Of a stretch of 35,263 bases of DNA, positions 1 through 30,534 are shown in pieces; position 1 is the first letter of the stretch, and each line of letters starts with the position of its first letter. Origin of the DNA: Pseudomonadota bacterium (GTDB taxonomy: Bacteria > Pseudomonadota > Alphaproteobacteria > Sphingomonadales > JBCDDR01); contig JBCDDR010000003.1 of the NCBI GenBank assembly GCA_039180205.1, forward strand, positions 1 to 35,263. The letters are read 5' to 3'. Under the pieces are notes generated by a model, which had not been told where the DNA came from, did not search any database, and was given only the letters and a program-made list of their open reading frames with translations. Position numbers and translations under genes: made by a program.

Positions 1-27
1 CCTGTTTATGCTCGCTCACCTATTGTC

Positions 28-753
28 TCACCCGCTGTGAAGTTCATTTGCCGCCGTCTCATTCAATACGCGATTTAAGAGCGCTTGGGCCGCACTTTGT
101 TCGGTCTCGCGTTTTGAGCGGCCTTCTGCCTCAGCTGACTGGCCCGAGATTAACGTAACCGAAATTTGAAAGCGCGGCGCATGGTCGGGCCCGGTACGCG
201 CGACAATCTCATACTGCGGCGGCGGCATTGCCCTTGCCTGCGCCCACTCCTGAAGGCGCGACTTGGCATCTTTCAGGATTTCGGGCGGATTTTGAAAACT
301 CTCTTCCCACGCCCGGCGGATCAACGCCTGGGCAGGAGCCAGCCCCCCATCGAGAAATACCGCCGCGATCACCGCCTCCATAACATTGGAAAGTACACTA
401 TCAAGTTCCGCCGCATCGGCTTCTTGGGCCGCAGTTGCCATGCGGATATGCGGCGCGAGGTCAATCATGCGACCGATTTCAGCAAGCATTTCCTTGCGAA
501 CCAAACGCGTATAGCGGTTCGCGAGCCTGCCTTCCGGCTCATCGGGGTAAGCCGCATAAAGCCATTCCGCGATCACGAGCCCCAGCACCCGATCCCCAAG
601 GAATTCAAGCCGCTGGTAGTTGGGTTCGCCATCCCGGCTGGGATGGGTAAGCGCATGTAAAAGCAGGGCTTCGTCAGCAAATTCATGGCCGAGTGCCGAA
701 GCTGCCCACTGGCGAACATGTTCGGAAACACCAGTCGTCTGAGCCATTGGCAC
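28..753 (-). CDS. rnc: Ribonuclease III
   Basis: RNase III signature NYQRLEFLGDRVLGL, ALTHPS, and C-terminal dsRBD (DAKSRLQEWAQ...GPDHAPRF); follows lepB as in the usual lepB-rnc-era order. Start is GTG 753 or ATG 747. Confidence 0.97.
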   Translation of the reverse strand: MPMAQTTGVSEHVRQWAASALGHEFADEALLLHALTHPSRDGEPNYQRLEFLGDRVLGLVIAEWLYAAYPDEPEGRLANRYTRLVRKEMLAEIGRMIDLAPHIRMATAAQEADAAELDSVLSNVMEAVIAAVFLDGGLAPAQALIRRAWEESFQNPPEILKDAKSRLQEWAQARAMPPPQYEIVARTGPDHAPRFQISVTLISGQSAEAEGRSKRETEQSAAQALLNRVLNETAANELHSG

Positions 754-6927: not shown

Positions 6928-6943
6928 GAAAGCCGTGATAGCG

Positions 6944-9827: not shown

Positions 9828-10547
9828 TTACTTTATCCGCCACAGCTTGGCGCGGTACATCATCCAAACGCGAACGGCACCGTCTCCAAAAACGGGGATA
9901 AATGCCTCGTCGTCAATCGCAAGGCCGCCAGTATAGCTGCCAAAGGCAGGCATAACCAAGCGTTTTTCACCCACCGCAAAACAAGGGCCTGCTGCGACCC
10001 GGCCTTTTAGGGGAACGCGGACCTTGGGATGATAATGACCGATGATTTGTGAACACGGCACGTCTTCATCCTCATGCGCGAAAAGTATCCCGCATTCGCT
10101 TAAACTGTGTACTACATGCCCACCGAAAACCCCGCCAAGTTCACCGTCATGATTACCGGTGACCCAGGTCCAGTCATCGACGCTTTCAACGAGCGAGGCG
10201 AGATGATCGCCATCGGGCCGCGCCATCCGCTCGCCTGCGCGCCGGTCGTGAAAACTATCGCCGAGAGAGATCACCCGCTCCGGTTTATGGTGGTCAATCG
10301 CAGCAGCAAGACGGGCCAGTGTGTCCAGGCTGTCAAGCACACTTACGGGAATGCCACGGCGGGCAAAATAAGACCCCTTTTCGAGATGCAGATCAGAAAC
10401 GACAAGTGTATTCCGTGCCGGCCACATAAGCACGCCCGACGGGCAAAGCAGGAAGTTTGCATCGCCAAAAGTGACCGGGGTCGGCGCACCGATCCTCTGC
10501 GGGCCGAAAGCCACCGGGTCTTTTGGGAGGGCCTGGTTAGTTTGCAA
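9828..10547 (-). CDS. pdeM: Ligase-associated DNA damage response metallophosphoesterase/endonuclease (PdeM/MPE)
   Basis: SDLHLEKGS, GDSFH, GNHD, HE, GHYHP, MPAFGSYTGG; start overlaps the lhr stop. Confidence 0.92.
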   Translation of the reverse strand: MQTNQALPKDPVAFGPQRIGAPTPVTFGDANFLLCPSGVLMWPARNTLVVSDLHLEKGSYFARRGIPVSVLDSLDTLARLAAAIDHHKPERVISLGDSFHDRRAGERMARPDGDHLASLVESVDDWTWVTGNHDGELGGVFGGHVVHSLSECGILFAHEDEDVPCSQIIGHYHPKVRVPLKGRVAAGPCFAVGEKRLVMPAFGSYTGGLAIDDEAFIPVFGDGAVRVWMMYRAKLWRIK

Positions 10548-13023
10548 TCGTCGCTCCTACTTCACGCGCGATATCGCGATACAATTCATCGGCCTCTTCA
10601 TCGAAGGTCGCCTGCTCAAGAAGTGCTTCGACCCCGCTGCCGGGAACAGGTTCGGTACGCGCGTCCATTAGGATCGGTATGGCAAGCGGGCTCACCCGGT
10701 CAAGCGACCGAAAGAGCGCATGCCCATGAAACCGGTTGAGCCAGTCAGACAAACGCGCGACGTCCAAAAGCTCGCCCTCGGCATCCTCGCGGGCGATCCG
10801 CAAAAGGATATGGTCGGGCTCATATCGCATGAGCACATCATAAATTAGATCGGTGTTGAAAGTGATCTGCTTCATGGCGCGTCGCTCTCCCGCGCGGCGC
10901 TGCTCGGTCAAACCCGTAATTGTGGCGATCCGCCGGAAAGACCGCTTCAGCATCGGCGATGCCGCGATCCATTCTTCTAATTCGTCGCCCAAAATATCGG
11001 GAGCGAGCAGCTCATCGACATGGTCTGCCATCACTTCGCGCGCACCGGAGACAGCGAGCCCATAATCAGTGATCCGAAAACTTAACGGTTGCAGGCCTAA
11101 CCGCTCCATCCTTCGGGTGATCAGCATGCCAAGCGTCTGGTTCGCAAGCCGTCCTTCGAAAGTGTAGATCACCGTATAATTGAGGCCCTGGCGGGTAAAA
11201 TGCTCAACCAGGACATGTTTGTCGTCGGGGAGCACCGAATACGCCTGTTGTAGCGTCAACCATTCGCGCACATCATCAACATACCCTCCCCAGCTTTCCG
11301 GTTTATTCAATCGGTCGCGGACGCCCATGGAGAGAAAGGTGGAAAGGGGCATCTGACCACCTGCATAGGCCGGCACCTTTGGCAGTCGCCCCTTGCCCGC
11401 ACGGCATTCCAGGTTCATGTCACTCACGCCAATAAAGACGAGCATTTCACCCGCGAAGATAAAGCTATCGCCTGGGGTTAGCCCTTGCGCGAAATATTCT
11501 TCGACCTCCCCAAGAATGCGCCCCACCGAACGGTTTTTTGGGCTGACCTTTTTCACCTTAAGGCGCGCCGCCTCAACAATCACGCCGATATTCTGCCGGT
11601 GACGCGCAATGATCGCCCGGCTCGGAATGCGGTAGCGCCCGTCCTCGTCTCGCACCAAACGCTGATACTGGTCATATTGCGAAAGTACCGACCCGCCATC
11701 GATGCAAAAACGGAACAGCCGCTCAAATGTGTCTTCGTCCAGCCTTCGATAGGGAAAGGCGCTCCTGACAACCGCGAGCACCTCTTGAGGCGTCGCGGGC
11801 ACTGCACAAAGGCAGTTCATAACGAACTGAACGACGACATCCAAAGCGCCAGCCCCAGGGGCAGGGCTGTCCTGATCACCCCGCTCAATCGCATCGCGCG
11901 CCGCATAGCATTCAAGCGCCTCAAACCGATTTCCAGGCACCAGAATTGCGCGGCTTGGGGTATCCAATCGATGGTTTGACCGCCCAATCCGTTGCATCAG
12001 ACGCGATACGCCCTTGGGTGCCCCCACCTGCAAAACCAGGTCAACATCACCCCAGTCGATGCCGAGTTCGAGGGCGGATGTCGCTACCACCGAGCGGATT
12101 TTTCCATCGGCCATCATGGCCTCGGTTTTGCGGCGTTGCTCTTTGGCGAGCGAGCCGTGGTAGATCGCAATAGGGAGGCCATCCTCATTCGCCTCCCACA
12201 GCATTTGAAAGAGAAGCTCCGCCTGCGCGCGGGTGTTTACGAAAACGATCGAGGTGCCGGTTGTGCGGATTATATTGTAGATATCATCAACTGCGTATCG
12301 CGCCATAAACCCGCCAAAGGGCATTTCGGCATCCGAACGGAGGATCTCGATTTCCGGCTGAACAGCATCTTCAGCCCTTACCACGGTCGCGGTTTTGTCA
12401 GGCGGACTTAACCATTTGGCGAGTGCTGGCATATCGGCAACGGTTGCCGAAAGCCCAAATCGGCAATATCCCGGAACCAATTGCTCCAGCCTGGCAAGCG
12501 CAAGGCTGGTAAAGTCACCGCGTTTGGAGCCGATAAAGCTATGCGCTTCGTCAAGAATCACCAGCTTCAGCGATCCGAAAATTCGATCCGCGTCGGGGTA
12601 GCTGAGCATCAACATCAGTGATTCAGGCGTTGTCAGCAGCATATGCGGCGGGCGTTCGCGTTGACGCTTTCGTTTCGATTGCGGCGTATCGCCCGTGCGG
12701 GTTTCAACCGAGATCGGAAGCCCAATTTCGGTAATGGGAGCCCCCAGGTTACGCTCGATGTCATTGGTCAGTGCTTTCAGCGGGGATACATACAGCGTGT
12801 GGAGCCCGTCGTGCGTTCCCGCCATCAGGTCCTCAAGCGCGGGAAGAAACCCGGCGAGTGTTTTCCCTGCCCCGGTAGGAGCCACAAGCAAAGCCGAGTT
12901 CCCAGAACGAAACGCCGAGCGCATCGCCGTCTGGTGCCCGCGCAGGGCCCAGCCACGCCCCGCGAACCAATCAACAATCGGCTGCGGCCAATCGGCCCCA
13001 TCAGGGCGCAAGGGGGTGGACAT
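10537..13023 (-). CDS. Ligase-associated Lhr-core DEXH-box helicase
   Basis: APTGAGKTLAGF, YVSPLKALTNDI, TTPESL, DEAH, LSAT, ELGIDWGDVD, QRIGRSNH. Start uncertain (ATG 13023, 13035 or 13044). Confidence 0.94.
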   Translation of the reverse strand: MSTPLRPDGADWPQPIVDWFAGRGWALRGHQTAMRSAFRSGNSALLVAPTGAGKTLAGFLPALEDLMAGTHDGLHTLYVSPLKALTNDIERNLGAPITEIGLPISVETRTGDTPQSKRKRQRERPPHMLLTTPESLMLMLSYPDADRIFGSLKLVILDEAHSFIGSKRGDFTSLALARLEQLVPGYCRFGLSATVADMPALAKWLSPPDKTATVVRAEDAVQPEIEILRSDAEMPFGGFMARYAVDDIYNIIRTTGTSIVFVNTRAQAELLFQMLWEANEDGLPIAIYHGSLAKEQRRKTEAMMADGKIRSVVATSALELGIDWGDVDLVLQVGAPKGVSRLMQRIGRSNHRLDTPSRAILVPGNRFEALECYAARDAIERGDQDSPAPGAGALDVVVQFVMNCLCAVPATPQEVLAVVRSAFPYRRLDEDTFERLFRFCIDGGSVLSQYDQYQRLVRDEDGRYRIPSRAIIARHRQNIGVIVEAARLKVKKVSPKNRSVGRILGEVEEYFAQGLTPGDSFIFAGEMLVFIGVSDMNLECRAGKGRLPKVPAYAGGQMPLSTFLSMGVRDRLNKPESWGGYVDDVREWLTLQQAYSVLPDDKHVLVEHFTRQGLNYTVIYTFEGRLANQTLGMLITRRMERLGLQPLSFRITDYGLAVSGAREVMADHVDELLAPDILGDELEEWIAASPMLKRSFRRIATITGLTEQRRAGERRAMKQITFNTDLIYDVLMRYEPDHILLRIAREDAEGELLDVARLSDWLNRFHGHALFRSLDRVSPLAIPILMDARTEPVPGSGVEALLEQATFDEEADELYRDIAREVGATIAN

Positions 13024-13086
13024 CTCGGCTTTCATCGCCACCATATTGGCTCGGGTATTGGCAATCGCCAACAATTATTGCTATGA

Positions 13087-13112
13087 ATACGTATCGCGAA
13101 CAAAAAAGCAAC
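13087..13112. promoter_or_regulatory. Candidate alphaproteobacterial LexA (SOS) box
   Basis: GAAC-AAAAAAG-CAAC (13098-13112) is one mismatch from GAAC-N7-GAAC; a further degenerate half-site ATAC (13087-13090) is in register. Lies in the divergent promoter of a DNA-repair module. Confidence 0.55.
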
Positions 13113-13116
13113 TTAA

Positions 13117-14124
13117 ATGCACCCTGAAACCTGGATCGAAATTCGGCCTGAAGGCCCCTATGTGGTGCCTGCTGATGCCTATATTGATCCGACACGGCCG
13201 GTGCCGCGGGCGATTATTACCCATGGTCATGCCGATCATGCCCGCGCAGGCCATGGTACCGTTTATGCCACGCCCGAAACATTGAAAATCATGGCGGTAC
13301 GGTATGGGGAAACATTTACGGACACCCGGATCCCCTTGGCTTATGGAGAAACGATTGAGATCGGCGGGGCCGAACTTTGTTTCGGGCCTGCCGGACATAT
13401 ATGGGGCAGCGCCCAGGCGATGGTTGAGCATGCCGACAAGCGGATTGTCTTCGCGGGCGATTACAAACGCCGCGAGGACCCGACCGCAGCGCCATTCACC
13501 CCCATGGCGTGCGATGTGTTTGTCACCGAGGCCACCTTTGGTCTCCCTGTCTTTCGCCACCCGCCGATCGAGGATGAAATCGCCAAACTTCTGAATTCAC
13601 TCGCATTGCAGGGGGACCGGCCGCATCTTGTAGGCGCCTACGCACTGGGGAAATGCCAGCGTGTCATCATGGCACTGCGCGCAACCGGATATCAAAAGCC
13701 AATTTATCTCCATGGCGCTCTGATGAAACTTGCTACGCTGTATCAGGAAAACGGTTTTGATTTCGGCGAGTTACGACCGGTTGCAGGGGTAAAGAGGGAT
13801 CAGCTTGCCGGAGAGATTATCATGTGCCCACCAAGCGCGCTCGCCGACCGCTGGTCACGGCGGATGGGGGACCCGGTGACCGCGATGGCCTCGGGGTGGA
13901 TGCGCGTTCGCGCGCGGGCACGCCAGCGCGGGGCCGAGTTACCCCTGATCATCTCCGACCATGCCGATTGGAATGAATTGTGTCTCACGTTACAAGAAAT
14001 GGCGCCGGCGGACATCTGGATTACCCACGGGCGCGAGGATGCGCTGATGCATCAGGCCGAGCGGATGCAGATCAAGGCGCGCGCGCTTTCTTTGATCGGC
14101 TATGAAGAAGATGCGAGCGAGTGA
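13117..14124 (+). CDS. Ligase-associated DNA damage response exonuclease (MBL/beta-CASP fold)
   Basis: ITHGHADHAR, PAGHIWGSAQ, GDYKR, TEATFGLPVF, GAYALGKCQR, ISDHADW, THG. Confidence 0.93.
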   Translation: MHPETWIEIRPEGPYVVPADAYIDPTRPVPRAIITHGHADHARAGHGTVYATPETLKIMAVRYGETFTDTRIPLAYGETIEIGGAELCFGPAGHIWGSAQAMVEHADKRIVFAGDYKRREDPTAAPFTPMACDVFVTEATFGLPVFRHPPIEDEIAKLLNSLALQGDRPHLVGAYALGKCQRVIMALRATGYQKPIYLHGALMKLATLYQENGFDFGELRPVAGVKRDQLAGEIIMCPPSALADRWSRRMGDPVTAMASGWMRVRARARQRGAELPLIISDHADWNELCLTLQEMAPADIWITHGREDALMHQAERMQIKARALSLIGYEEDASE

Positions 14125-15719
14125 TGCGTGCGTTCGCGAAGCTCCTTGATCAGCTATACTTCACGAGCGCGAATAATGCCAAACGGGCCTATTTGCTTGA
14201 TTATTTCCGATCGACCCCCGATCCGGATCGTGGGTTTGCGCTCGCGGCCCTCGCGGGAACTCTTGATTTCGATCTTTTCAAGCGCGGGCTGATCCGCGAA
14301 TTGATCGAAGAGCGTGTCGACCCGACACTCTTCGCGATGAGCTATGATTATGTTGGCGAAATCTCTGAAACCGTGGCCCACCTCTGGCCGACCCCGCCTC
14401 GCCAACCTGGCCAACCGGACGACACCGACCTACCATCGCTTTCCCGCGTGATTGACGAGTTCCGCACCGCTGGCAAGGCTGACATTCGCAGCCTCCTAGC
14501 TGACTTTCTGGACAGGATGAACGCCAGCGAGCGCTGGGCGCTTCTGAAACTGGGCACCCGCGGGCTTCGGGTGGGTGTCTCTGCGCGCTTTGCCAAAAAA
14601 GTCGTTGCGGAATTTGCGGGCGTTGATGTTCATGAAGTCGAAGAGATCTGGCATGCGCTCGCGCCACCTTATGAAGACCTGTTTGCCTGGGCGGAAGGGC
14701 GCGCACCGCGACCGAGCATTGAGGGTCGCGTTGTGTTCCATCCGGTCATGCTTGCGCATCCACTAGAAGACGACAAGGTTGAGACGATCTCACCCGACCA
14801 ATTTGCTGCCGAATGGAAATATGATGGTATCCGTGTCCAGCTTGTGGGGGAGCGGTCGGGCAGCGGCGTGTTCTCACGGACGGGCGATGATATCTCGGGC
14901 GCCTTCCCCGATATTCGTGATGCGATCGACTTTCGCGGCGTGGTCGACGGGGAATTGCTGATCATCCGCAATGGTGAGATCGGCAGCTTTCAAGACCTCC
15001 AAACCAGACTGGGGCGAAAGTCGCCCTCCGCCAAAATGATTGCTGAACGGCCAGCGGGTATCATGCTTTATGACGCCCTCAATCTCGATGGTGAGGATAT
15101 ACGCCCCCTGCCCTTTCGCGAGAGGCGCATTCGACTTGAAGCATTCAGTGCCCCGAGAAAAGGGGGGCGATTTCACCTCTCCCCACTCGTGACGTTTGAG
15201 TCGGTGGAAGCGCTGGCGGCCTTACGCGCACAAATCGCCGGTGAAGATGCCGGGCTGATCGAAGGTCTGATGCTGAAACGGTGGGACGCGCCCTATCTAC
15301 CCGGTCGCCCTACTGGGCAATGGTATAAGTGGAAGCGCGATCCTCTCCTACTCGATGCCGTTCTCATGTATGCGCAGCGCGGGCATGGCAAACGGTCGTC
15401 GTTTTACTCCGACTATACGTTTGGGCTTTGGAAAGACGACCAGCTTTTGCCAATTGGCAAGGCCTATTTCGGGTTTAGCGACGACGAATTGAAACAGCTC
15501 GACAAATGGGTGCGTGCTCACGCCATCGGGCGGTTTGGTCCGGTACGTGAGGTTGAGAAAGCACTGGTTTTTGAGGTTGCATTCGATAGCGCTCACCGCT
15601 CGAAACGCCATAAATCGGGCTTTGCCCTGCGTTTTCCACGGATCAGCCGGATCCGCTGGGACAAACCGGCGCACGAAGCCGACCAGCTTTCAGCGCTGGA
15701 AACACTTGTTGGCGAGTAG
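14121..15719 (+). CDS. ATP-dependent DNA ligase (cisplatin-damage-response type)
   Basis: EWKYDGIRVQL (adenylated Lys), DGEL, EGLMLK, WYKWK, YAQRGHGKRSSFYSDYTFG, LRFPRISRIRWDK; overlaps the exonuclease stop. Confidence 0.95.
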   Translation: MMRAFAKLLDQLYFTSANNAKRAYLLDYFRSTPDPDRGFALAALAGTLDFDLFKRGLIRELIEERVDPTLFAMSYDYVGEISETVAHLWPTPPRQPGQPDDTDLPSLSRVIDEFRTAGKADIRSLLADFLDRMNASERWALLKLGTRGLRVGVSARFAKKVVAEFAGVDVHEVEEIWHALAPPYEDLFAWAEGRAPRPSIEGRVVFHPVMLAHPLEDDKVETISPDQFAAEWKYDGIRVQLVGERSGSGVFSRTGDDISGAFPDIRDAIDFRGVVDGELLIIRNGEIGSFQDLQTRLGRKSPSAKMIAERPAGIMLYDALNLDGEDIRPLPFRERRIRLEAFSAPRKGGRFHLSPLVTFESVEALAALRAQIAGEDAGLIEGLMLKRWDAPYLPGRPTGQWYKWKRDPLLLDAVLMYAQRGHGKRSSFYSDYTFGLWKDDQLLPIGKAYFGFSDDELKQLDKWVRAHAIGRFGPVREVEKALVFEVAFDSAHRSKRHKSGFALRFPRISRIRWDKPAHEADQLSALETLVGE

Positions 15720-19750: not shown

Positions 19751-20437
19751 CTATTCAATCGCCTTGCGATAGCTGCTGTGGCGTTCCTTTTGTAAATAGT
19801 GTAGTTTTTGCCGTCCGGCCTTAAGTTCTTCGGCGGACAGGAAACCGTCGGCATCGGTATCGAGCATGGCAAACCGCTCTTTCGGATCCGCCAGAAGCTC
19901 ATCCTCGCTGATGCTGCCATCACCATTCACATCAATCCGCTCCATGCGATCTGCGCGTCGTTCGTCACGCGCGCCACTTCGCTTTTCGACCCGCTCATCA
20001 ATCGTTTGGCCAAGTTCTTGTTTTGAGACGGCGCCATCATTGTTCCGATCAGCCCGGTCAAAGACTGTTGATTGATAATCGATAAATTCGTCTCGTGTGA
20101 CAATTCCATCTTCGTCGTGATCAGCCCATTCAAACTGACGGGCGGCACCCCGTTTGGCCTTTTGTTTTCCTCGTTTTTCCCAGGATTTTTGAACCTCTTC
20201 AAACTCGCCTTCGCTGATCAGCCCGTCCTGATCGGCATCCAGTCGTTCGAAACGCACTTTGTGACGCGCGAGAAACTCATCGAGGCTGACCTGGCCGTCG
20301 CGGTCGCGATCGGCACGCAGAAGCTGATTGTTGGGAAATGCCGATCGATCGAAGGCGTTTGCAGCCAACGCCCAACCCGCCGTAGAGGTCGCGGCAACTG
20401 CCCCCAAGAGAAGTACATGTTTGGTTATGAATTTCAT
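19751..20437 (-). CDS. Secreted EF-hand calcium-binding protein
   Basis: Signal peptide, then six DxDxDG-type loops: DRDRDGQVSLDE, DADQDGLISEGE, DHDEDGIVTRDE, DRNNDGAVSKQE, DVNGDGSISEDE, DTDADGFLSAEE. Confidence 0.9.
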   Translation of the reverse strand: MKFITKHVLLLGAVAATSTAGWALAANAFDRSAFPNNQLLRADRDRDGQVSLDEFLARHKVRFERLDADQDGLISEGEFEEVQKSWEKRGKQKAKRGAARQFEWADHDEDGIVTRDEFIDYQSTVFDRADRNNDGAVSKQELGQTIDERVEKRSGARDERRADRMERIDVNGDGSISEDELLADPKERFAMLDTDADGFLSAEELKAGRQKLHYLQKERHSSYRKAIE

Positions 20438-21487: not shown

Positions 21488-23917
21488 ATGCGCGGGATGT
21501 CAAGCGTGAAGTCGATTTTGGTCGGGGCATTTGCCGGGCTTTTGGCGATCGGTAACGCCGCAGCGCAGGTCGAACAGACCAAAGGCAGTTTTGTTGATAA
21601 GTTCCGCCAGCTCGAAGAAATCCTGCCGACCCCGAACGTGTATCGGACGGCTTCAGGCGCCCCTGGCCATCAATATTGGCAGCAGCGCGCCGATTATAGA
21701 ATCAACGTCAGTATTGATGATGACAAGCAGATCCTGACGGGCTCCGAGACGATTACCTATACCAATAACTCGCCCGATCAGTTGCGCTATATATGGGTCC
21801 AACTCGACCAGAACCGCTTCGCCAAGCACTCCGATAACTACCGCAGCGAAACTTTGAGCGGTTCGCGCGAAATCGCGAAAGCAGGCGGCGGATCATCAAA
21901 CAAACTGCCTTATTCGGCCATGCGGCGCGCGTTCAAGACGCTTGAGTTCGATGGCGGACACAAAATCGACGCGGTTACCGATGCAAGCGGGGCGAACCTG
22001 CCGTACACCATCAACCAAACCATGATGCGCATCGATCTACCGACACCGCTGAAACCGAGTGCCAGCCTGACATTCAATATCAACTGGCACTATAATATCA
22101 CCCCCAGCCGCCAACTCGGTGGGCTTCGTTCCGGATATGAATTTTTCAAGGACGACGAAAACTACCTCTATCTGATTGCACAGTGGTATCCGCGGGTTGC
22201 TGCCTATACCGATGCCACCGGCTGGAACAACAAACAGTTTCTCGGCCGCGGTGAGTTCACGTTGGAATTTGGCGACTATGAAGTCGCCATCGAAGTACCC
22301 GCTGATCATGTCGTTTCGTCAACGGGTGAATTGACCAACGCAGACACGGTCTTGACAGCAACCCAGCAGAAACGCCTTGAGACCGCGCGCACCGCAAAAG
22401 CGCCGGTGTTTATCGTTTCACCCGAGGAAGCGGTTGAGAACCAGAAAACCAAAGCAAAAGGCCGCAAAACCTGGGTGTTCAAAGCCGAAAATGTGCGCGA
22501 TTTCGCCTTTGCGACGTCACGGAAGTTCATTTGGGATGCGGTTGGATACAAGCAACCAACCGACGGCAAAACGATTATGGCTATGTCGTTCTACCCGGAC
22601 GAGGCTGAACCGCTTTGGAGCAAATATTCAACGAAAACCATCGTTCACACGATGAAGGTCTACTCGAAATATTCCTTTCCCTATCCGTATCCGACTGCGC
22701 AATCCGTCAACGGACCTGTAAGTGGGATGGAATATCCGATGATCACCTTCAACGGCCCCCGCCCGGTAATCGACAAAGAAACCGGCGAACGCACGTATAC
22801 GCGTCGTGCGAAATATGGCCTGATTAGCGTCATCATCCACGAGATCGGGCATATCTACTTTCCGATGACGGTGAATACTGATGAGCGCCAATGGACCTGG
22901 ATGGACGAAGGTATCAATACGTTCCTTCAGTTCCTTGCGCAGGAAGAATGGGAAGAGGGTTACCCATCCCGCCGCGGTGAGGCGCGCAAGATTGTGAGCT
23001 ATATGCGCTCGCAAAACCAAGTGCCCATCATGACCAATTCGGAATCGATCCTCCAGTTCGGTAACAACGCCTATGGCAAACCCGCGACGGCGTTGAATAT
23101 TCTTCGTGAGACCGTCATGGGGCGTGAGCTTTTTGATTTTGCATTCAAAGAGTATGCGCGGCGGTGGGCCTTCAAACGGCCATACCCCGCTGACTTCTTC
23201 CGCACGATGGAAGACGCGTCGGGCGTTGATCTCGACTGGTTTTGGCGCGGATGGTTTTATTCGACCGACCATGTCGATATCTCAATCGACCGCGTGGTTC
23301 ATGCCCATATTAATACCGAAGACCCCGACATTGAAGAGGCGCTGAAGCGTAAGAAAAAAGCCGACGAACCGGTCAGCATCACAGTGGAGCGGAATAAAGG
23401 CATGCCGCGCGCGGTTGAGGCTGATCCCGACCTTCTCGATTTCTACAACGAGAATGATGAGTTCACCGTTTCGGGCAAACAGCGCAAAGCCTATGAAAAA
23501 CTGATCGAGGATCTGGAAGACTGGGAGGCCGAACTCCTGAAGCGCGGGGAGCATGTCTACTTCCTCCAGTTTTCCAATAAAGGTGGGCTGGTCATGCCGG
23601 TTATCCTCGATGTCACCTTCAAGGATGGCTCCAAGAAAGAGTATCGCTGGCCCGCCGAGATTTGGCGTTACACCCCGCATACAGCGACCAAGATGGTGAT
23701 CACGGAAAAAGAGATTGCTAAAATCGTCGTCGATCCCCGGCTTGAAACCGCTGATGTTGATCTGGAAAACAACACATGGCCAGCGGAGCCTGTCGAAAGC
23801 CGACTTGAGCTCTTCAAACGCAAGAAGAGCCGGAATCTCATGAAAGAGATCTACGATGATCAAAAACCCGACGAAGAGGATGGCGACGACACAGATAGCG
23901 ACGATGAGGATAAGTAG
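21488..23917 (+). CDS. Secreted M1-family zinc aminopeptidase
   Basis: Signal peptide, YRTASGAPG..YWQQRADY, GMEYPM, HEIGH...WMDEG, AYGKPA; acidic C-terminal tail. Confidence 0.92.
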   Translation: MRGMSSVKSILVGAFAGLLAIGNAAAQVEQTKGSFVDKFRQLEEILPTPNVYRTASGAPGHQYWQQRADYRINVSIDDDKQILTGSETITYTNNSPDQLRYIWVQLDQNRFAKHSDNYRSETLSGSREIAKAGGGSSNKLPYSAMRRAFKTLEFDGGHKIDAVTDASGANLPYTINQTMMRIDLPTPLKPSASLTFNINWHYNITPSRQLGGLRSGYEFFKDDENYLYLIAQWYPRVAAYTDATGWNNKQFLGRGEFTLEFGDYEVAIEVPADHVVSSTGELTNADTVLTATQQKRLETARTAKAPVFIVSPEEAVENQKTKAKGRKTWVFKAENVRDFAFATSRKFIWDAVGYKQPTDGKTIMAMSFYPDEAEPLWSKYSTKTIVHTMKVYSKYSFPYPYPTAQSVNGPVSGMEYPMITFNGPRPVIDKETGERTYTRRAKYGLISVIIHEIGHIYFPMTVNTDERQWTWMDEGINTFLQFLAQEEWEEGYPSRRGEARKIVSYMRSQNQVPIMTNSESILQFGNNAYGKPATALNILRETVMGRELFDFAFKEYARRWAFKRPYPADFFRTMEDASGVDLDWFWRGWFYSTDHVDISIDRVVHAHINTEDPDIEEALKRKKKADEPVSITVERNKGMPRAVEADPDLLDFYNENDEFTVSGKQRKAYEKLIEDLEDWEAELLKRGEHVYFLQFSNKGGLVMPVILDVTFKDGSKKEYRWPAEIWRYTPHTATKMVITEKEIAKIVVDPRLETADVDLENNTWPAEPVESRLELFKRKKSRNLMKEIYDDQKPDEEDGDDTDSDDEDK

Positions 23918-24425
23918 AGCTCTCGCGGTTACGGTCGCGCTCTTTTTGGGCGCGGTTTCCGCATACGGGCATAACTTCCACACCGTACTCAGCACGATCA
24001 GTTTGAATGAGCGCACGGGTAACCTCGAAATCGTGCAGGAGCTTACCCTCCATGATTTGATGCCCGTGCTCATTGCGCTTTCGGGCGACCAGGCCCTCAC
24101 GATTGACAGTGAGGGAGCGGAAATCATGGTCAGAGATTATCTCAACAGGAATTTTCGTCTGCGTTTTGGCAAGACGGACGCGGCAATCGAGTGGATCGGG
24201 ATGGAAGCTGATATCGATACGCTGACCACCTATCAGCAGGTCACCTGGCCGGGCGAGCGTGAACCCATTACGGTTGAAAACCGGGTGTTGGCGGACGCGT
24301 ATTCCGACCAGGTCAATACACTGACGCTGGTCGTGGGAGACGCCGCCAAAAGCTATAGTTTTATCAAAGGGCAGTTCGAGCAGGAAATTGCCGTTGCGGA
24401 CGTGAGCCAGGATCGGCGGCCTTAG
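23904..24425 (+). CDS. DUF6702-like exported protein
   Basis: Signal peptide (MRISRALAVTVALFLGAVSAYG) followed by HNFHTVLSTI, HDL and DQVN, as I recall for DUF6702; start overlaps the M1 peptidase stop. Confidence 0.7.
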   Translation: MRISRALAVTVALFLGAVSAYGHNFHTVLSTISLNERTGNLEIVQELTLHDLMPVLIALSGDQALTIDSEGAEIMVRDYLNRNFRLRFGKTDAAIEWIGMEADIDTLTTYQQVTWPGEREPITVENRVLADAYSDQVNTLTLVVGDAAKSYSFIKGQFEQEIAVADVSQDRRP

Positions 24426-24521: not shown

Positions 24522-25535
24522 TTATCCGAACCACCAGCCGCGCGGCATGCGAACCGGCAGCATCGATTTCACAATCGGAGAGGAAAACCGCCTTAGATCA
24601 AGGCTTTCATGCATGGCGACCAGCGGCTGCCCGCCCAACACGGTGGTGATCATTGAGCGCACGTAAAACGGTGAGTCAACAAGTGCGCGGCGCACCCGCG
24701 GTCGCGACCCAGGGTCCGCAGCCGTTGAGCGTTTAACCCCCCAAAACCCTCGCGGCAGATCACATCGCGGGGGCACATCGAACATGCTGATGCTGCCATC
24801 ATCGCGATAAATCAAGCCAAGGTCCTGGCGAGGGGATTGCACAGGATCATCCCCGCAGCGAGATACATTGCCAAACAGTCGTGCCGCATCAGACGGGTGG
24901 CGGTGTTTGATATCGGGCATTTCGGCCGAATAAAGGATCACCGTTTCACGCCCGCGACGCGCACGCGACCAATCCCAGCGATGAAAACCTTTCGCGAGCG
25001 GCTCATGCCCTTCATTCATATCAAAATAGCCATGCCCTTCCCACGAAATGTCTGGCTTATCGAAGGCGACCGAGACCCGCATATGCGGCGCAATTGGACG
25101 CCAATGATGGCGTCCCCGCGCCTCCAGCGGATAGCGCGCAGAAAACATCGGATCGAGACGAAAACTGACCCGGCCTTTGAGCCTTTTCGGCATGGGGGCC
25201 GTCACTTCATCGAGCTCAATTTCAATAAGGTCGCCGTTTCGGGTGAGCGAGCTTGGCCCTACTGTGAACTGACCGGCACCGGTGGAAAGCCCGGTGCGCG
25301 GGCGTTCAGTCATCGCCCAAAGCGTCGCTTTTGGTGTATAGAGCGCCACGTTGACGGCCACATGATTGAACGGGTCCTTGTAGCCGCGCCAGGCATAATA
25401 GGGTGAAAAAACCGAACCGATGAAAAAGATCAGACTGAGCGACTGGGTCCCGTCGTCGCTGATGGCGTCGACATACCACCAGCGATAACCACTGGGTGGG
25501 ACCGGCGCATCGAAGCCCAATCCTCGATCAGACAC
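24522..25535 (-). CDS. crtC: Carotenoid 1,2-hydratase (hydroxyneurosporene synthase)
   Basis: GYRWWYVDAISDDG, FIGSVFSPYY, WAMTER, HHWRPIAP, WEGHGYFDMNEG, DSPFYVRS, HESLDL, MLPVRMPR. Start uncertain (GTG 25535 assumed, inside crtD). Confidence 0.92.
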   Translation of the reverse strand: MSDRGLGFDAPVPPSGYRWWYVDAISDDGTQSLSLIFFIGSVFSPYYAWRGYKDPFNHVAVNVALYTPKATLWAMTERPRTGLSTGAGQFTVGPSSLTRNGDLIEIELDEVTAPMPKRLKGRVSFRLDPMFSARYPLEARGRHHWRPIAPHMRVSVAFDKPDISWEGHGYFDMNEGHEPLAKGFHRWDWSRARRGRETVILYSAEMPDIKHRHPSDAARLFGNVSRCGDDPVQSPRQDLGLIYRDDGSISMFDVPPRCDLPRGFWGVKRSTAADPGSRPRVRRALVDSPFYVRSMITTVLGGQPLVAMHESLDLRRFSSPIVKSMLPVRMPRGWWFG

Positions 25536-26986
25536 TGTGCCGCCATCTGCCCCGAGAGCGAAGCCATCGGCATGCCCGGGGCCGGGTGCGCGCTGCCCCC
25601 CGCCAGGTAAAGCCCCGGCAGCTTGGTCCGTTGTCCCGGGCGGAGAAAATTCGCCAGCAAATGATGGTTCGCACGTCCGTACAGAGCCCCCCCGCTCCCC
25701 GGAAACCGATTGGCGAACATCGCCGGAGTTGTCCGCAAGCTTTCGGTCTTGGACCAATTGATCTGGAGCCCCGCACTGCTCAACCTTTGCTTCACCTGCG
25801 TCTCGCATCGCTCAATCTCCTCAGGGGCTGGCCCGCCCGTATCACCGCGCGCGGCGGCATTTACAATTAGAAACAGTCGCTCGTTTCCGTCGTGTTGATC
25901 ATTTTCTTCGTGCGATGTCTGGCGGCATATATAAATCGTGGGATCGCGCGGCAGGCCGTAACGGGCGATATCCTTGAATTCCAGCCGATAGTTCGCACCA
26001 AACGCGACATTGTGGTGCGCGAGCGGAAAGCCCGAAACAGGCCCATTGAGCGCCCACGTCAAGGCTGAGTAGGATCGTGCCCCGGGTGAAACGCGTTTCA
26101 CATGGTGCCCCTGGAGCGATCCCAAGAGCCCTGAGGCAAGCGCATTCACATCACCGTTTAAGACAACCGCATCGGCAGCGATCTCTTCGCCTGTTTCGAG
26201 GCGCAGGCCACTCACGCGTCCAGCCTCGGTTTTGATTTCGCTGACACCTGTCCCCAGGCGGATTTCTCCACCGGCATTCTCAACCAACGCGGCAATCGCC
26301 TGGGGGAGTTTCGCCATGCCGCCGCGGACCCGCCATACGCCCATCAGCTCGGCATAGGCGACCAGCATGAGCGTTGCCGGCGCACGGTAGGGAGAGGCCC
26401 CGCAGTATGTTGTGTATCGCGCAAACAACTGATGCAGGCGCGGGTCGCGGAAGTAGGATTTGAGTTTGCGCGCATAGGTCGGCACGGGCGACGCTGCCAA
26501 AAACTCCGCAAGCGTTGCATTTTTGAAAAGCCGCGCCATCGATGGCCGAGGGTAACGCATGAAACGCTCGTCAAGAACCTCAAATGCGGCTTGAGCATCT
26601 TGTGTAAACCGTGCAAACCCTTCGGCTTCTCCCGGCCCGGCAAACGCGCCAATTGCGTCTTTTGAGCGCTCAGTATCCTGAAACAAATCAAGCCGAGACC
26701 CATCTGGCCACACATGGCGGGCAAGCTCACAAAGCGGATCGAGCGTGATATGCGTCTCCAGCCGTGTCCCCGCACATTCAAAGAGCGCCTCGAACACATG
26801 ACGCATCGTGAGGACGGTAGGCCCCACATCAATCGCTGCCCCCCCAACCATGTCTTCGCGCGCCTTGCCGCCCACATGTGCCGCGCGTTCGAATACCCGC
26901 ACGTGGGCGCCCTTTGCAGCGAGCATCAAGGCGGCTGAGAGCCCTCCAATTCCGGCACCAATCACAGCGATACGAGGGGTGTTCAT
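25430..26986 (-). CDS. crtD: 1-hydroxycarotenoid 3,4-desaturase
   Basis: VIGAGIGGL FAD motif, DVGPTVLTM, PATLMLVAYAE, LYLAGGSAHPAPGMPMASLSG; sits between crtC and crtE. Confidence 0.93.
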   Translation of the reverse strand: MNTPRIAVIGAGIGGLSAALMLAAKGAHVRVFERAAHVGGKAREDMVGGAAIDVGPTVLTMRHVFEALFECAGTRLETHITLDPLCELARHVWPDGSRLDLFQDTERSKDAIGAFAGPGEAEGFARFTQDAQAAFEVLDERFMRYPRPSMARLFKNATLAEFLAASPVPTYARKLKSYFRDPRLHQLFARYTTYCGASPYRAPATLMLVAYAELMGVWRVRGGMAKLPQAIAALVENAGGEIRLGTGVSEIKTEAGRVSGLRLETGEEIAADAVVLNGDVNALASGLLGSLQGHHVKRVSPGARSYSALTWALNGPVSGFPLAHHNVAFGANYRLEFKDIARYGLPRDPTIYICRQTSHEENDQHDGNERLFLIVNAAARGDTGGPAPEEIERCETQVKQRLSSAGLQINWSKTESLRTTPAMFANRFPGSGGALYGRANHHLLANFLRPGQRTKLPGLYLAGGSAHPAPGMPMASLSGQMAAQCLIEDWASMRRSHPVVIAGGMSTPSATTGPSRSV

Positions 26987-27003
26987 CGACAAATTACGGC
27001 TCC

Positions 27004-27055
27004 TGTTTCAATGACTATACATTTCAACAGTTTTATGTGACAATCAAAATTGACA
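27004..27055. promoter_or_regulatory. PpsR/CrtJ operator pair in the divergent crtD-crtE promoter
   Basis: Perfect TGT-N12-ACA at 27004-27021 (TGTTTCAATGACTATACA) and one-mismatch TGA-N12-ACA at 27038-27055 (TGACAATCAAAATTGACA); they overlap a minus-strand TTGTCA-N18-TATAGT promoter for crtD. Confidence 0.8.
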
Positions 27056-27109
27056 CATGGATTGAATTTGCGTTGTCCAAAGGCATCGCGCGAGAAGAAA
27101 GGCACGGCT

Positions 27110-28066
27110 ATGGCGTCATCACCCGTTGGAACAGCGAGACAACCCCTGGATAAGCTGGAACGCCGGTCGATGGTGGAGATAGAACGCGACGGCAGTGCGC
27201 TCATCGAGACCCTGATTGAAGAAGCGCTCCACCGCGCGGAAGGGGAAGGGTCACCGCCGCGACTGGCTGCGGCGCTTCGCCACGCGGTATTACCCGGAGG
27301 CGCGCGGATACGTCCCCGGTTGGCAATGTCCGTCGCGGCTGCCCATGGTGCCCATTTGGATGGAACGGCATGGCGCGGCGCCGCTGCAGGTGCCGCAGCG
27401 ATCGAAATGTTACATTGCGCGTCGCTTGTACATGACGACCTCCCTTGTTTTGATGATGCCGATATGCGCCGCGGGAAGCCAGCGGTTCACCGTGCGTTTG
27501 GGGAGCGGTTAGCGGTTCTCGGTGGCGATGCTCTGATCGTCATGGCATTTGAAACCGCTGCGCTGAATTGCGCACCCATGCCGCGCCGCCTTGTGGCGAT
27601 TACCCGAGTTCTGGCGGCATCAGTTGGCATGCCCCAGGGGATTGCCGCGGGTCAGGCGTGGGAATGCGAACCCCATGCGGAACTATCAGCCTATCAGCAG
27701 GCAAAAACCGGGGCGCTGTTCGCGGGCGCGACCATGGTCGGCGCGCTGGCCGCAGGCGGCACCGATCAAGAAGGCTGGGCCCTTTTTGGTCAGCGCCTTG
27801 GCGAAGCTTATCAGGTCGCGGATGATATCCGCGATGTGGCGGGGGATGCTGAACAGCTTGGCAAGCCGGTCGGTCAGGATGACCGATTAGGACGGCCAAA
27901 TGCAGCACTTAGTTTTGGTCTGCCAAGAGCTGTGAAGCGGCTCACCAAGCTGGTCGAAGACGCCGCAGCCGACATTCCGAAGTGCGCTGGACGAACTGCC
28001 TTGCAAGCGCTGGTCGCTGCCGAAACGCGCAAATTCCTTCCACAAAAGATATGGGAACTGGGCTAG
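27110..28066 (+). CDS. crtE: Geranylgeranyl pyrophosphate synthase
   Basis: PGGARIRP, HCASLVHDDLPCFDDADMRRGKP, KTGALF, GEAYQVADD, GKPVGQD. Start is ATG 27110 or 27170. Confidence 0.95.
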   Translation: MASSPVGTARQPLDKLERRSMVEIERDGSALIETLIEEALHRAEGEGSPPRLAAALRHAVLPGGARIRPRLAMSVAAAHGAHLDGTAWRGAAAGAAAIEMLHCASLVHDDLPCFDDADMRRGKPAVHRAFGERLAVLGGDALIVMAFETAALNCAPMPRRLVAITRVLAASVGMPQGIAAGQAWECEPHAELSAYQQAKTGALFAGATMVGALAAGGTDQEGWALFGQRLGEAYQVADDIRDVAGDAEQLGKPVGQDDRLGRPNAALSFGLPRAVKRLTKLVEDAAADIPKCAGRTALQALVAAETRKFLPQKIWELG

Positions 28067-28164
28067 TCCCGAGGCTTCACGTCGCTGGATTTCTGAAATT
28101 CGGTGTCGCCTTATCACCACGCATACGCATGTGTTCACGAGCAAAGGCTTCGGTGGTCAATAAC

Positions 28165-29202
28165 ATGTATTTTGGCAGATTGCTTGGGGCTTCACTATTC
28201 TTTGCAGCGTTTGGGTGGTGCCCTCCATGGCTGTCTCCTGCGGTTTCCAAAGAGGTCGCAGACCCCGAGCCATATCGTTTTTTTGCGGTTCAGGCCGAAA
28301 ATGACCTCTATGTTGCCGATGGTGACCGCCATTATACAAACGGCGTCCGCATTGCGTATGGATTTCGGGAAAATGCCCGTCCACGCGCGCTTCGCTGGCT
28401 CCGCCACCTGCTACCGATGAAGATGCCTGAAACGCTCGCTTTCGAGGTGGCGATCGGTCAGAATTTATATACGCCTGAGATTTTTTTCATTCCTGATCCG
28501 ATCCCCGATGATCGGCCATTTGCTGCGTGGGTTTTCGCCGATGCCGTGGCCACCGCGCGCAAGCCGGGCCGCGAGGAGAGCCTTGTGCTCACGGTGGGCT
28601 GGATCGGAGAGCCTGCCCTCGGAGATGAAAGTCAGAGCTTTTTCCACTCCATTTTCGGTGCCCCCGAGCCGCTTGGCTGGGATAATCAATTGCGTGCCGA
28701 ACCAACGCTGCAATTTCGGTATCAGCGCAGTCATTTCCTACCCTTGATCCGTGACCGGGATCATCGTGTTAGGGCGGATATCGTTCCCCGCGTCGGGGGG
28801 TCGCTCGGAAATGTCTTTATCGATATCGGCGCTGGGCTCACGTTTCGGCTGGGAAGCAATCTGGTAAACCGCGACACACCCCTTGCCATCCCACCCGGCC
28901 TCAATGGTCAAACCAGCCGCTTTGAGGTTCGCTCTGGAAAGGTCGATTGGCTGATCTTCGCCGGGGGAACGGCACGCGCGGTTTTCCACAATCTCTTTCT
29001 CGATGGAAACAGCTTTCGCGATAGCCTCTCCGTCGATCGCCGCACCTTTGTATGGGACACGACGGCAGGCGCGATGCTGATCTTCGGGTTTCGTAAAACA
29101 CCGATTGCCATCAGCTTTACGCACGCCCTGCGCGCGCGGGAATTCAATGAACAAATCGGGCGCAACCGAATCGGAAGTTTGCAGGTCAGCATTGGTTTCT
29201 AG
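28165..29202 (+). CDS. LpxR-family (DUF2219) outer-membrane beta-barrel lipid A 3'-O-deacylase-like protein
   Basis: Signal peptide, ENDLY..DRHYTNG, GQNLYTP, DRPFAAW, QSFFH, GWDNQL, LGNVF, LFLDGN, alternating beta-strand pattern and C-terminal Phe. Confidence 0.85.
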   Translation: MYFGRLLGASLFFAAFGWCPPWLSPAVSKEVADPEPYRFFAVQAENDLYVADGDRHYTNGVRIAYGFRENARPRALRWLRHLLPMKMPETLAFEVAIGQNLYTPEIFFIPDPIPDDRPFAAWVFADAVATARKPGREESLVLTVGWIGEPALGDESQSFFHSIFGAPEPLGWDNQLRAEPTLQFRYQRSHFLPLIRDRDHRVRADIVPRVGGSLGNVFIDIGAGLTFRLGSNLVNRDTPLAIPPGLNGQTSRFEVRSGKVDWLIFAGGTARAVFHNLFLDGNSFRDSLSVDRRTFVWDTTAGAMLIFGFRKTPIAISFTHALRAREFNEQIGRNRIGSLQVSIGF

Positions 29203-29238
29203 GGTCAGGGCTCATTAATTCCATGGCCGTGACCCTAG
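29199..29238. repeat. 40-bp inverted repeat bounded by CTAG
   Basis: CTAGGGTCAGGGC-TCATTAATTCCATG-GCCGTGACCCTAG: arms match at 12 of 13 positions; no U-tract follows. Confidence 0.7.
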
Positions 29239-29288
29239 GGGAAAGCGACGCAAGCGCGAAAGGCAGGGCGCAAAAGTTAAAAAATATT

Positions 29289-30413
29289 ATGACCGATTTC
29301 ACACATCAATTATCAAAATCTGCGTCTGGTTGGATGTCCCGGTTTACCGCGGGCAATCGCTTTCAGGAAATGGCTATTCGCCTTCCTTTTTTTAATCAGA
29401 TCACTCGTCATTATCTTCGTGACCTTTTCGGCCTGATGACCGGCTTTGTTGGCGCTCAGGTTCTGGCCGCCTGCGTTGAGCTCGACCTCTTTACCCAGCT
29501 TCGCGGCGGGCCAAAGTCACTTTCCGCGCTTTGCTTTCCATCCAAAATAAAGCCGAGGGAAGCCGCGCGATTGATGCAAACTGCCGAGAGCTTTGGTCTG
29601 GTGAAAATCAACCGCCGGGGCGACTATGCGCTCACCTTGAAAGGTTCAGCCATTGCTGCCGACCCTGGGATTGCCGTGATGGTCAAACATCACGCCAGAT
29701 TATATCAGGATCTACAATCACCGCTGGCGCTTTTTGAAACACCGATGCCGCGGACCGAATTGCGTGATTTTTGGCACTATACCGACCCCGAAAGCGCCGC
29801 GACCGAAGACAAGCACTCGCTCGCCTACAGCGATGTGATGGCAGCATCACAGCCAATGGTGATTGACGCCGTCCTGGCCGGTTTTCCATTTCATCACCAC
29901 AAACGCATTCTCGATATCGGCGGGGGACATGGTGGCTTTCTGACCCGGCTCCTCAGCAAAGTCCCTGAACTTGAAGCCACACTTGCCGACCTTCCGCCCG
30001 TCGCCGACGACGCCAAGGCGAAGCTTGCGAACACATCCGTTGCGCAGAGGATCAAGACAACAGGTATGGCTTTCCGCGTCGACGCATTTCCCCCTGATCA
30101 TGACTTGATCACCATGATTCGGATCGCCTTCGATCACCCGGATGAACGGCTTGAAATGCTCTTTTCTAAGGCTTTTGAAGCGCTCGATTCGGGGGGGCGC
30201 CTTCTGATTGCCGAGCCCATGGCATCGAAAAAACGATCACGGGCGGCGATCAACGGATATTTTGATATGTATCTTCTCGCAATGGGAGGCGGACGTCTGA
30301 GGACGGTTGAGGAATTCGCATCATTATTGCGCCGTGCCGGATTTGAAGCGCCGCGCCCGCACAAGTCGCGCACGCCCGAACTCATTTCCCTACTAAGCGC
30401 GCGCAAGCCCTGA
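29289..30413 (+). CDS. crtF: Hydroxyneurosporene/demethylspheroidene O-methyltransferase
   Basis: GFVGAQVLAACVELDLF, MVKHHARLYQDL, YSDVMAASQPMV, SAM motif LDIGGGHG, YFDMYLLAMGGGRLR; immediately upstream of bchC. Start is ATG 29289 or 29223. Confidence 0.9.
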   Translation: MTDFTHQLSKSASGWMSRFTAGNRFQEMAIRLPFFNQITRHYLRDLFGLMTGFVGAQVLAACVELDLFTQLRGGPKSLSALCFPSKIKPREAARLMQTAESFGLVKINRRGDYALTLKGSAIAADPGIAVMVKHHARLYQDLQSPLALFETPMPRTELRDFWHYTDPESAATEDKHSLAYSDVMAASQPMVIDAVLAGFPFHHHKRILDIGGGHGGFLTRLLSKVPELEATLADLPPVADDAKAKLANTSVAQRIKTTGMAFRVDAFPPDHDLITMIRIAFDHPDERLEMLFSKAFEALDSGGRLLIAEPMASKKRSRAAINGYFDMYLLAMGGGRLRTVEEFASLLRRAGFEAPRPHKSRTPELISLLSARKP

Positions 30414-30490: not shown

Positions 30491-30534
30491 TGTAAATCTA
30501 GGTTGACAACTCATCTCGTTTAATTAGACTGACA
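30491..30534 (+). promoter_or_regulatory. bchC promoter with tandem PpsR/CrtJ palindromes
   Basis: TGTAAATCTAGGTTGACA (30491-30508, perfect TGT-N12-ACA) and CGTTTAATTAGACTGACA (30517-30534, one mismatch), 8 bp apart as in Rhodobacter bchC; they overlap TTGACA-N16-TAGACT. Confidence 0.85.

Follow-up and report, generated by a model that had tools for sequence, protein, structure and literature searches.

LpxR of Salmonella Typhimurium (structure 3FID) is a Ca2+-dependent lipid A 3'-O-deacylase, LpxR of Yersinia and Helicobacter has the same function, and to our knowledge deacylation of lipid A in pathogens is the only role described for LpxR. Also described are PagL, a lipid A 3-O-deacylase and likewise an outer-membrane barrel deacylating an outer-leaflet lipid, which belongs to a different, smaller family with a Ser-His-Glu triad, and OMPLA (PldA, PF02253), a dimeric, Ca2+-dependent outer-membrane barrel with a Ser-His-Asn triad, which deacylates misplaced outer-leaflet lipids. 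Photosynthesis clusters of the Rhodobacter type, in turn, are organized as crtD divergent from crtE-crtF-bchCXYZ and carry PpsR/CrtJ operators. Here, we describe a gene of the LpxR family, lpxR, which is located between crtE and crtF of such a cluster in a genome of the order Sphingomonadales (GenBank assembly GCA_039180205.1, designated G000 in the following). The window, i.e., the whole stretch of DNA that was analysed (35,263 nt), represents the complete contig JBCDDR010000003.1 (C3) of this 2.63-Mb assembly, which consists of 328 contigs and is 90.8% complete with 2.67% contamination. Its pigment genes show the same order and orientation as in Rhodobacter-type clusters, including paired TGT-N12-ACA palindromes before crtE and bchC, but here a 1038-nt gene for a predicted outer-membrane enzyme and a strong hairpin are added between crtE and crtF. 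With moderate confidence, we favour a joint reading of this locus, in which lpxR would encode a working LpxR-family enzyme, would be a native gene of the order that was relocated, would be transcribed from the crtE promoter, and would act on a substrate other than lipid A.

The gene (28,165–29,202, + strand) lies in an open frame of 27,982–29,202 (+). Starting with the ATG at 28,165, it encodes a protein of 345 aa (P0001) that ends in ...VSIGF, whereas the public gene call for the same protein (P0002, 357 aa) uses an alternative start 12 codons upstream at 28,129. A Pfam search assigned P0001 to the LpxR family (PF09982, E 7.2e-77) with 258.9 bits versus a cut-off of 26, residues 25–345 covering profile positions 11–323 of 323; no model in NCBIfam matched it. 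Thus, the complete LpxR-family frame of about 345 aa with a terminal Phe, which a first-pass annotation had read from the letters alone, turned out to be intact and far above the family cut-off. At the N-terminus, a short basic segment precedes a hydrophobic helix (residues 2–16 of the structural model), and the chain is then disordered up to residue 38; this N-terminus looks like a signal peptide. Close relatives are named "lipid A deacylase LpxR family protein" in public sources.

An AlphaFold2 model of P0001, built on 34 family members, reached a mean predicted local distance difference test score (pLDDT) of 89.8 and a predicted template modelling score (pTM) of 0.84, and revealed 12 strands and a helix at residues 153–164. 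The top match among solved structures was Salmonella LpxR (3fid_A; Foldseek E 4.8e-17, template modelling score of 0.81 on the target). Using VIA-align, residues 38–345 of the model were placed on positions 1–296 of this chain with a Z of 30.2 and a root-mean-square deviation of 2.2 Å over 275 of 296 residues, compared with a Z of 18.0 for the next unrelated barrels, although the sequences share only 20–23% identity. The barrel anticipated in the first pass is therefore present in the model, and P0001 is alike to Salmonella LpxR in Pfam family, 12-strand barrel, and loop-3 helix, as well as in the active-site residues Gln and His and the Asn-Asp and Thr of the Ca2+ site.

At the residue level, Q157 and H161, encoded at 28,633–28,647 (+) and located on the loop-3 helix (helix 153–164 of the model), aligned position by position with Q118 and the catalytic H122 of 3fid_A. 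Among 34 diverse family members, H161 is invariant and Q157 nearly invariant. The presumed Ca2+ site, corresponding to N9, D10, and T34 of the Salmonella enzyme, is encoded at 28,300–28,338 (+) and comprises N46-D47 and D54-R55-H56-Y57-T58; within the same set, N46, D47, D54, and Y57 never vary, and H56 and T58 hardly do. Here, the assignment of N46 and D47 to positions 9 and 10 of the chain was deduced from the structural range (38..345 on 1..296) and not from a printed residue alignment, and T58 stands opposite T34 in a profile alignment to 3FID in which this stretch is weak. The segment from Asn-Asp to Thr measures 12 residues in P0001 versus 24 in Salmonella LpxR. According to Table 2 of PMC3486919, the exchanges N9A, D10A, S34A, Q118A, and H122A each abolish deacylation by Yersinia LpxR, and passages of PMC6260217 on simulations of Salmonella LpxR attribute Ca2+ binding to N9, D10, and T34 and the activation of water to H122, acting as base. 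The catalytic His proposed in the first pass is thus found at the expected place, and P0001 retains the residues on which activity depends.

Two other positions differ. The same passages of PMC6260217 describe K67 of Salmonella LpxR as contacting 3-deoxy-D-manno-oct-2-ulosonic acid (Kdo) or phosphate, and D11 as second cation ligand. In P0001, neither residue appears to be kept; K67 lies opposite Ile109 in a variable column, within a loop that could be aligned only with uncertainty, and Leu48 follows N46-D47 at the place of D11. Judged from the alignment, Ile109 and Leu48 would fit an altered head-group site. Since the nearest relative is only 51% identical and synonymous sites are saturated, we counted the retention of conserved columns in place of determining the ratio of nonsynonymous to synonymous substitution rates (dN/dS). 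Of the 56 columns with at least 90% conservation across 33 other members, P0001 retained 53, a result that ranks it 11th from worst of 34, and we read it as a probably active enzyme with some lineage-specific drift.

In regard to its surroundings, lpxR is co-oriented with both neighbours. Upstream, crtE (27,050–28,066, +; Pfam polyprenyl_synt, E 3.8e-45) encodes a geranylgeranyl diphosphate synthase, whose true start may be the ATG at 27,110, and is followed by a spacer of 98 nt (28,067–28,164, +), or 62 nt if the start at 28,129 is used. Downstream, a second spacer of 86 nt leads to crtF (29,289–30,413, +; alternative start at 29,223), encoding a hydroxyneurosporene O-methyltransferase (Pfam Methyltransf_2, E 4.4e-32). 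Both gaps are as given in the first-pass annotation, whose region 28,067–29,288 corresponds to lpxR plus the two spacers. The crtE gene is 45–66% identical to crtE beside crtF in relatives, and crtF is 31–42% identical to crtF of 49 other photosynthesis clusters. Based on Pfam and NCBIfam, crtF is followed on the right by bchC, bchX, bchY, and the start of bchZ, and crtD and crtC are located to the left of crtE in divergent orientation.

For comparison, we used 40 genomes of relatives, all from the same order but none from the same family or genus. An LpxR homologue with 28–44% identity was present in 22 of them, and at none of the 19 LpxR loci of relatives was crtC, crtD, crtE, crtF, or bchC found within about 1.5 kb. 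Conversely, crtF was detected in 47 of 300 other genomes of the order, and no LpxR gene appeared at the 29 crtF loci inspected there, which carry upstream of crtF either crtE directly (six loci), a divergent crtD (19), crtC (one), or nothing (three). Sampling of 400 genomes of the class resulted in 21 with crtF; the 20 further loci from other alphaproteobacterial orders were also free of LpxR, 19 of them showing crtE-crtF-bchC with a divergent crtD (18 loci) or crtC (one) on the far side of crtE, and the remaining locus ending early. Thus, crtE stands directly beside crtF in 25 of the 49 other crtF loci. The best 80 LpxR loci from metagenomes, with proteins 32–44% identical to P0001, were likewise without nearby pigment genes, the sole non-LpxR match being one weak methyltransferase; a 23-residue match in a Halobacterium record from the related-locus search with P0001 was discarded as spurious. 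Altogether, the arrangement crtE-lpxR-crtF, which the first-pass annotation had proposed to look for in genomes and metagenomes, was absent from all 49 other crtF loci and all 99 other LpxR loci compared. The first-pass statement that no LpxR is known in a photosynthesis cluster held in the full-text literature searched, which covers few subscription journals: no case of LpxR in such a cluster, or of a lipid A deacylase together with bacteriochlorophyll, and nothing on DUF2219 was found there. Titles and abstract openings retrieved for LpxR and sphingolipids contained nothing about LpxR in this setting.

Scanning of both lpxR spacers for promoter-like or terminator-like sites on the + strand revealed none, and the fold of the crtE-lpxR spacer was no better than that of shuffled sequences (z -0.75). 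The first-pass claims of a co-oriented embedding and of a missing terminator after crtE were hence borne out, and no own promoter or operator of lpxR was detectable. A promoter-like site at 28,172–28,201 was rejected as lpxR promoter, as it starts 7 nt after 28,165 in the coding frame and the next ATG (28,227) is out of frame. In the divergent crtD-crtE promoter region, a motif scan detected a pair of PpsR/CrtJ-type palindromes (TGT-N12-ACA), one perfect (27,004–27,021) and one with a single mismatch (27,038–27,055), located 1.1 kb upstream of lpxR in the same orientation. A second pair precedes bchC, consisting of a perfect site that overlaps TTGACA (30,491–30,508) and a one-mismatch site (30,517–30,534), with starts 26 nt apart. 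Exact sites were no commoner in the window than expected by chance (five found vs. 4.09 expected), and the argument therefore rests on their position: two of the five lie at places expected for PpsR/CrtJ operators, each with a one-mismatch partner, and these are the only paired palindromes of this type. Sites with one mismatch were also at chance level (98 found vs. 97.8 expected), and the spacers around lpxR held only single sites of this kind at background density, among them 28,104–28,121 between crtE and lpxR, with none above chance in lpxR's own spacer. A PpsR/CrtJ gene is encoded in G000 on another contig (C157; 408.5 bits vs. a cut-off of 275.4). Because neither an own promoter nor an own operator was detected, lpxR is most likely read from the crtE promoter, and to judge by these motifs it probably shares with crtE and crtF a transcript that starts at this PpsR-type promoter.

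The hairpin mentioned above overlaps the stop codon of lpxR (29,199–29,238, +). Repeat and fold analysis revealed 13-nt arms with 92% complementarity and a 14-nt loop, and no T-run follows the stem-loop; its stability of -30 kcal/mol (z -4.63) was reached by none of 200 shuffles. It had neither been reported by the terminator scan nor seen in the first pass. Two relatives, G042 and G013, displayed no fold better than shuffles in the region after lpxR (z -1.62 and 0.16, respectively). An assembly of the public run X1, described below, differs from the window at 29,210 and 29,212, in the 5' arm and at the loop edge of this stem-loop.

These features also bear on the alternative that survives best, namely a selected functional link, in which lpxR would provide an esterase of the photosynthesis regulon and the outer membrane would be remodelled when low-oxygen or light signals acting through PpsR switch on pigment synthesis. 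Such a link would agree with the co-orientation and short spacers without an own promoter-like or operator-like site, with paired palindromes only before crtE and bchC in a genome encoding PpsR, with an intact gene whose catalytic residues are conserved and which is the sole LpxR found in the assembly, and with a base composition that shows no recent arrival. However, the arrangement recurs at no other crtF locus and pigment genes at no other LpxR locus, the phototrophic relatives G013 and G042 keep lpxR elsewhere, and the neighbours of LpxR vary within the order as they would for a stand-alone housekeeping gene. We therefore regard this link as unlikely, though with a chance worth keeping in mind; that it was selected is possible but unsupported.

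The substrate poses a separate problem. LpxC (PF03331) was found in none of the 41 genomes of the order, including G000, although 34 of them are at least 90% complete. In five genomes checked closely (G000, G013, G042, G005, and G015, three of which are listed as 100% complete), no LpxD, no N-terminal domain of KdtA, and no LpxK over the cut-off were detected, and LpxB was not found in G000, the one genome searched for it. All lipid A marker searches were positive in the controls E. coli and Caulobacter. In contrast, the family LpxR was over its Pfam cut-off in 25 of the 41 genomes. The model for the alphaproteobacterial serine palmitoyltransferase matched in all five genomes and over its strict cut-off in three, with 589.7 bits in G000 versus about 230 bits for the 5-aminolevulinate synthase and BioF-like paralogues. 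Lipid A seems to be lacking in the order as a whole and not just in its largest family, yet LptD, the barrel of the lipopolysaccharide transporter, is kept in all 41 genomes.

Since the lipid A pathway genes are lacking in the order, the substrate of P0001 is very probably not lipid A but another acyl-ester lipid of the outer membrane, as far as gene content can tell. In this respect, and by the location of its gene within a pigment operon, P0001 also stands apart from Salmonella LpxR. That P0001 is nevertheless a true lipid A 3'-O-deacylase, acting on lipid A made or acquired by the organism, appears very unlikely to us. Family, fold, and catalytic residues are clear, close relatives bear this name, and LptD is present, all of which would suit such an enzyme, but they are set against the failure to find LpxC (0/41), LpxD, LpxK, KdtA (0/5 each), and LpxB (0/1) with positive controls and in part in genomes listed as complete, the presence of serine palmitoyltransferase, and the apparent replacement of Lys67 and Asp11 by Ile109 and Leu48, with the alignment of the Lys67 loop being uncertain. 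Lipid A deacylation, the first function suggested in the first pass, is thus not supported, whereas the hydrolysis of another acyl-lipid, which had been named as well, survives by elimination.

This gene content agrees with that of sphingomonads, in which lipopolysaccharide is replaced by glycosphingolipids, the acyl chains of which are amide-linked, so that an esterase would need a different target. OMPLA was identified in four of the 41 genomes, all four without LpxR; thus none of the 25 LpxR genomes contained it, and 12 genomes possessed neither. There is no relation in sequence or family between OMPLA and P0001, and the likeness in role is by analogy only, but the distribution of the two families, which never occurred together in the 41 genomes checked, suggests that an LpxR-type barrel may fill the role of OMPLA in clearing the outer leaflet of phospholipid. 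In the order, mlaC adjoins one LpxR locus. The PagL family was matched in none of the searches made in this study.

Concerning the origin of the gene, the best non-self matches of P0001 were P0003–P0006 with 49–51% identity. P0005 belongs, by its NCBI name, to a metagenome-assembled genome of the Rhodothalassiaceae, and a 100% identical protein is encoded in G042 of the same order. Both G042 and G013 (homologue with 44% identity) are phototrophs, whose crtE and crtF are adjacent and located on contigs other than that of lpxR, and in both of them lpxR adjoins genes for protein N of the type II secretion system (T2SS), a prepilin peptidase (A24), and a YccF-type protein. In a quick maximum-likelihood tree, P0001 grouped with G013, P0005 (= G042), P0003, P0004, and P0006 with Shimodaira–Hasegawa-like approximate likelihood ratio test (SH-aLRT) values of 87–88. 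The identity of lpxR to relatives (44–51%) falls within what its neighbours show, namely crtE (65–66%), bchC (53–56%), and crtF (37–41%), and its GC content (0.565; 0.595 at third codon positions) is within the range of the window, with a genome GC of 0.557. Flanking repeats of lpxR were of 10–19 nt only and of chance type, and no transposase or integrase was detected among the ORFs of the window by Pfam and NCBIfam. These relatives within the order, the flank-like identity, the ordinary GC content, and the absence of repeats and mobile-element genes argue for a native origin, and we infer that the pigment operon of this lineage received lpxR, as a gene native to the order, by relocation or duplication.

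Other LpxR loci of the order had diverse neighbours, namely MazG in four loci, T2SS genes in two, small outer-membrane barrels in two, and MlaC, TspO, and an EF-hand protein once each, as counted from 42 of 83 flanking open frames after leaving out those that overlapped LpxR or looked spurious. This variety is as expected for a stand-alone, housekeeping-like gene. The TspO gene lies beside the LpxR homologue of G026 (L013:491-1027), a genome in which the crtF query had no match (assembly 81% complete); TspO is a usual member of Rhodobacter-type photosynthesis clusters. The EF-hand protein is encoded directly beside the LpxR homologue of G039 (L020:846-1439). A secreted-looking protein with four EF-hand Ca2+ motifs is also encoded in the window at 19,751–20,437 (-), adjoining a PPK2 polyphosphate kinase; LpxR enzymes need Ca2+, but this remains one case only.

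An assembly chimera, or a foreign gene recently dropped in by a mobile element, is highly improbable in the light of the public run X1, which holds 95% of sampled words of 27,400–30,000. A 2346-nt contig from X1, produced by a different assembler, covers 27,125–29,470 at even depth with three base differences and spans crtE, lpxR, and the start of crtF. Since it bridges both junctions at even depth, the linkage is not an assembly artefact, though X1 may be the sample from which the window itself was assembled, so that it supports the join and not an independent occurrence. The fragmented, metagenome-type assembly with its contamination and the uniqueness of the linkage would fit a chimera or foreign gene, but against it speak, apart from the bridging contig, the lack of any compositional break, flanking repeats above chance, or mobile-element genes, and the nearest relatives in the same order. 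In the first pass, a linkage confined to this assembly or unsupported by reads had been named as grounds for giving up the idea of a linked system; by comparison, the linkage is indeed unique, but reads do support it. The passenger insertion considered there is favoured by the same comparisons, albeit with a native gene and no mobile-element scar.

Finally, an esterase for carotenoid or other pigment esters of the neighbouring crt genes, also raised in the first pass, has nothing in its favour but the position between crtE and crtF and deserves hardly any credence, given a predicted outer-membrane barrel with typical terminal Phe while crt products are located in inner and photosynthetic membranes, a family present in 25 of 41 genomes of the order when crtF occurs in only 47 of 300 others, and a linkage seen just once.

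The joint reading that we favour can be worded as a mechanism. P0001 would form an outer-membrane barrel with His161 and Gln157 on the loop-3 helix and with Asn46, Asp47, and Thr58 holding Ca2+; this site would activate water and cut an ester-linked acyl chain from a lipid of the outer leaflet, a chemistry like that of Salmonella LpxR, resembling phospholipase A2. The gene, native to the order, would have moved in this lineage alone from type II secretion genes, where the nearest phototrophic relatives keep it, to the site between crtE and crtF, and crtE-lpxR-crtF would be co-transcribed from the PpsR-type crtE promoter, with the hairpin at the stop codon perhaps stabilizing this transcript or partly ending it before crtF. 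As our best guess, the substrate would be a glycerophospholipid or another acyl-ester lipid reaching the outer leaflet, and the role would be a housekeeping one like that of OMPLA.

Several points weigh against this reading. Regarding the enzyme, P0001 diverges more than any of its 16 closest relatives, with 85 of 96 conserved columns retained, and carries Ala241 where 32 of 33 others have Arg. As for transcription, the stem-loop could act as a terminator and thereby uncouple crtF from lpxR. The absence of lipid A comes from profile searches, and these would leave room for another route to a lipid A-like molecule; the mutual exclusion of OMPLA and LpxR is a weak pattern, as it involves three genera and related genomes, with 12 of 41 genomes having neither. 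The relocation was deduced with G000 as sole member of its family and genus among the genomes compared, from a tree of modest support in a quick search, and with genomic context compared for P0005 alone among the four closest homologues. Moreover, a contig end interrupts the ancestral-type locus of G000, where a gspN-like match runs off contig C32 at base 1, and neither a prepilin peptidase nor YccF was found at this locus in the incomplete, fragmented assembly. Although P0001 is the sole LpxR found in the G000 assembly, there may be a second copy, and hence duplication in place of relocation.

Further features of the window concern genes around lpxR or apart from it. Positions 1 to about 24 kb harbour ordinary housekeeping genes according to Pfam and NCBIfam, including a DNA-repair style cluster at 10,537–15,719 with an Lhr-type helicase, a metallophosphoesterase, a nuclease-like protein of the metallo-beta-lactamase fold, and an ATP-dependent DNA ligase. 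Two ORFs remained without a Pfam match, 6902–7510 (-, 202 aa) and 23,282–24,127 (-, 281 aa), the second lying just left of the pigment cluster. The frame of crtC (24,522–25,808, -) overlaps that of crtD (25,430–26,992, -) by 379 nt; since the first 120 residues are of low complexity and the CrtC profile match begins only at residue 127, the real start of crtC is probably located well downstream. Elsewhere in G000, as in some phototrophs, two separate 5-aminolevulinate synthase genes were detected with TIGR01821, C218:1393-2736 (673.6 bits) and C97:6987-8234 (666.8 bits).

The placement within the pigment operon was seen only once and is most likely due to relocation; it would illustrate how the crtEF-bchC transcription unit can, in nature, capture an unrelated gene of the envelope. 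The more far-reaching proposal, that LpxR barrels, widespread in a lipid A-free sphingolipid order, define a new substrate class, possibly in the role of OMPLA, and are here wired into an oxygen- and light-controlled crtE-crtF transcript, is speculative and in its full form rather improbable. The more interesting result is the family within the order, and less so the locus: as LpxR with intact catalytic residues occurs in 25 of 41 genomes although their order appears to be free of lipid A, the annotation as lipid A deacylase would be wrong for these bacteria, and the LpxR fold must also serve another lipid here, which bears on how outer membranes are maintained without lipopolysaccharide.

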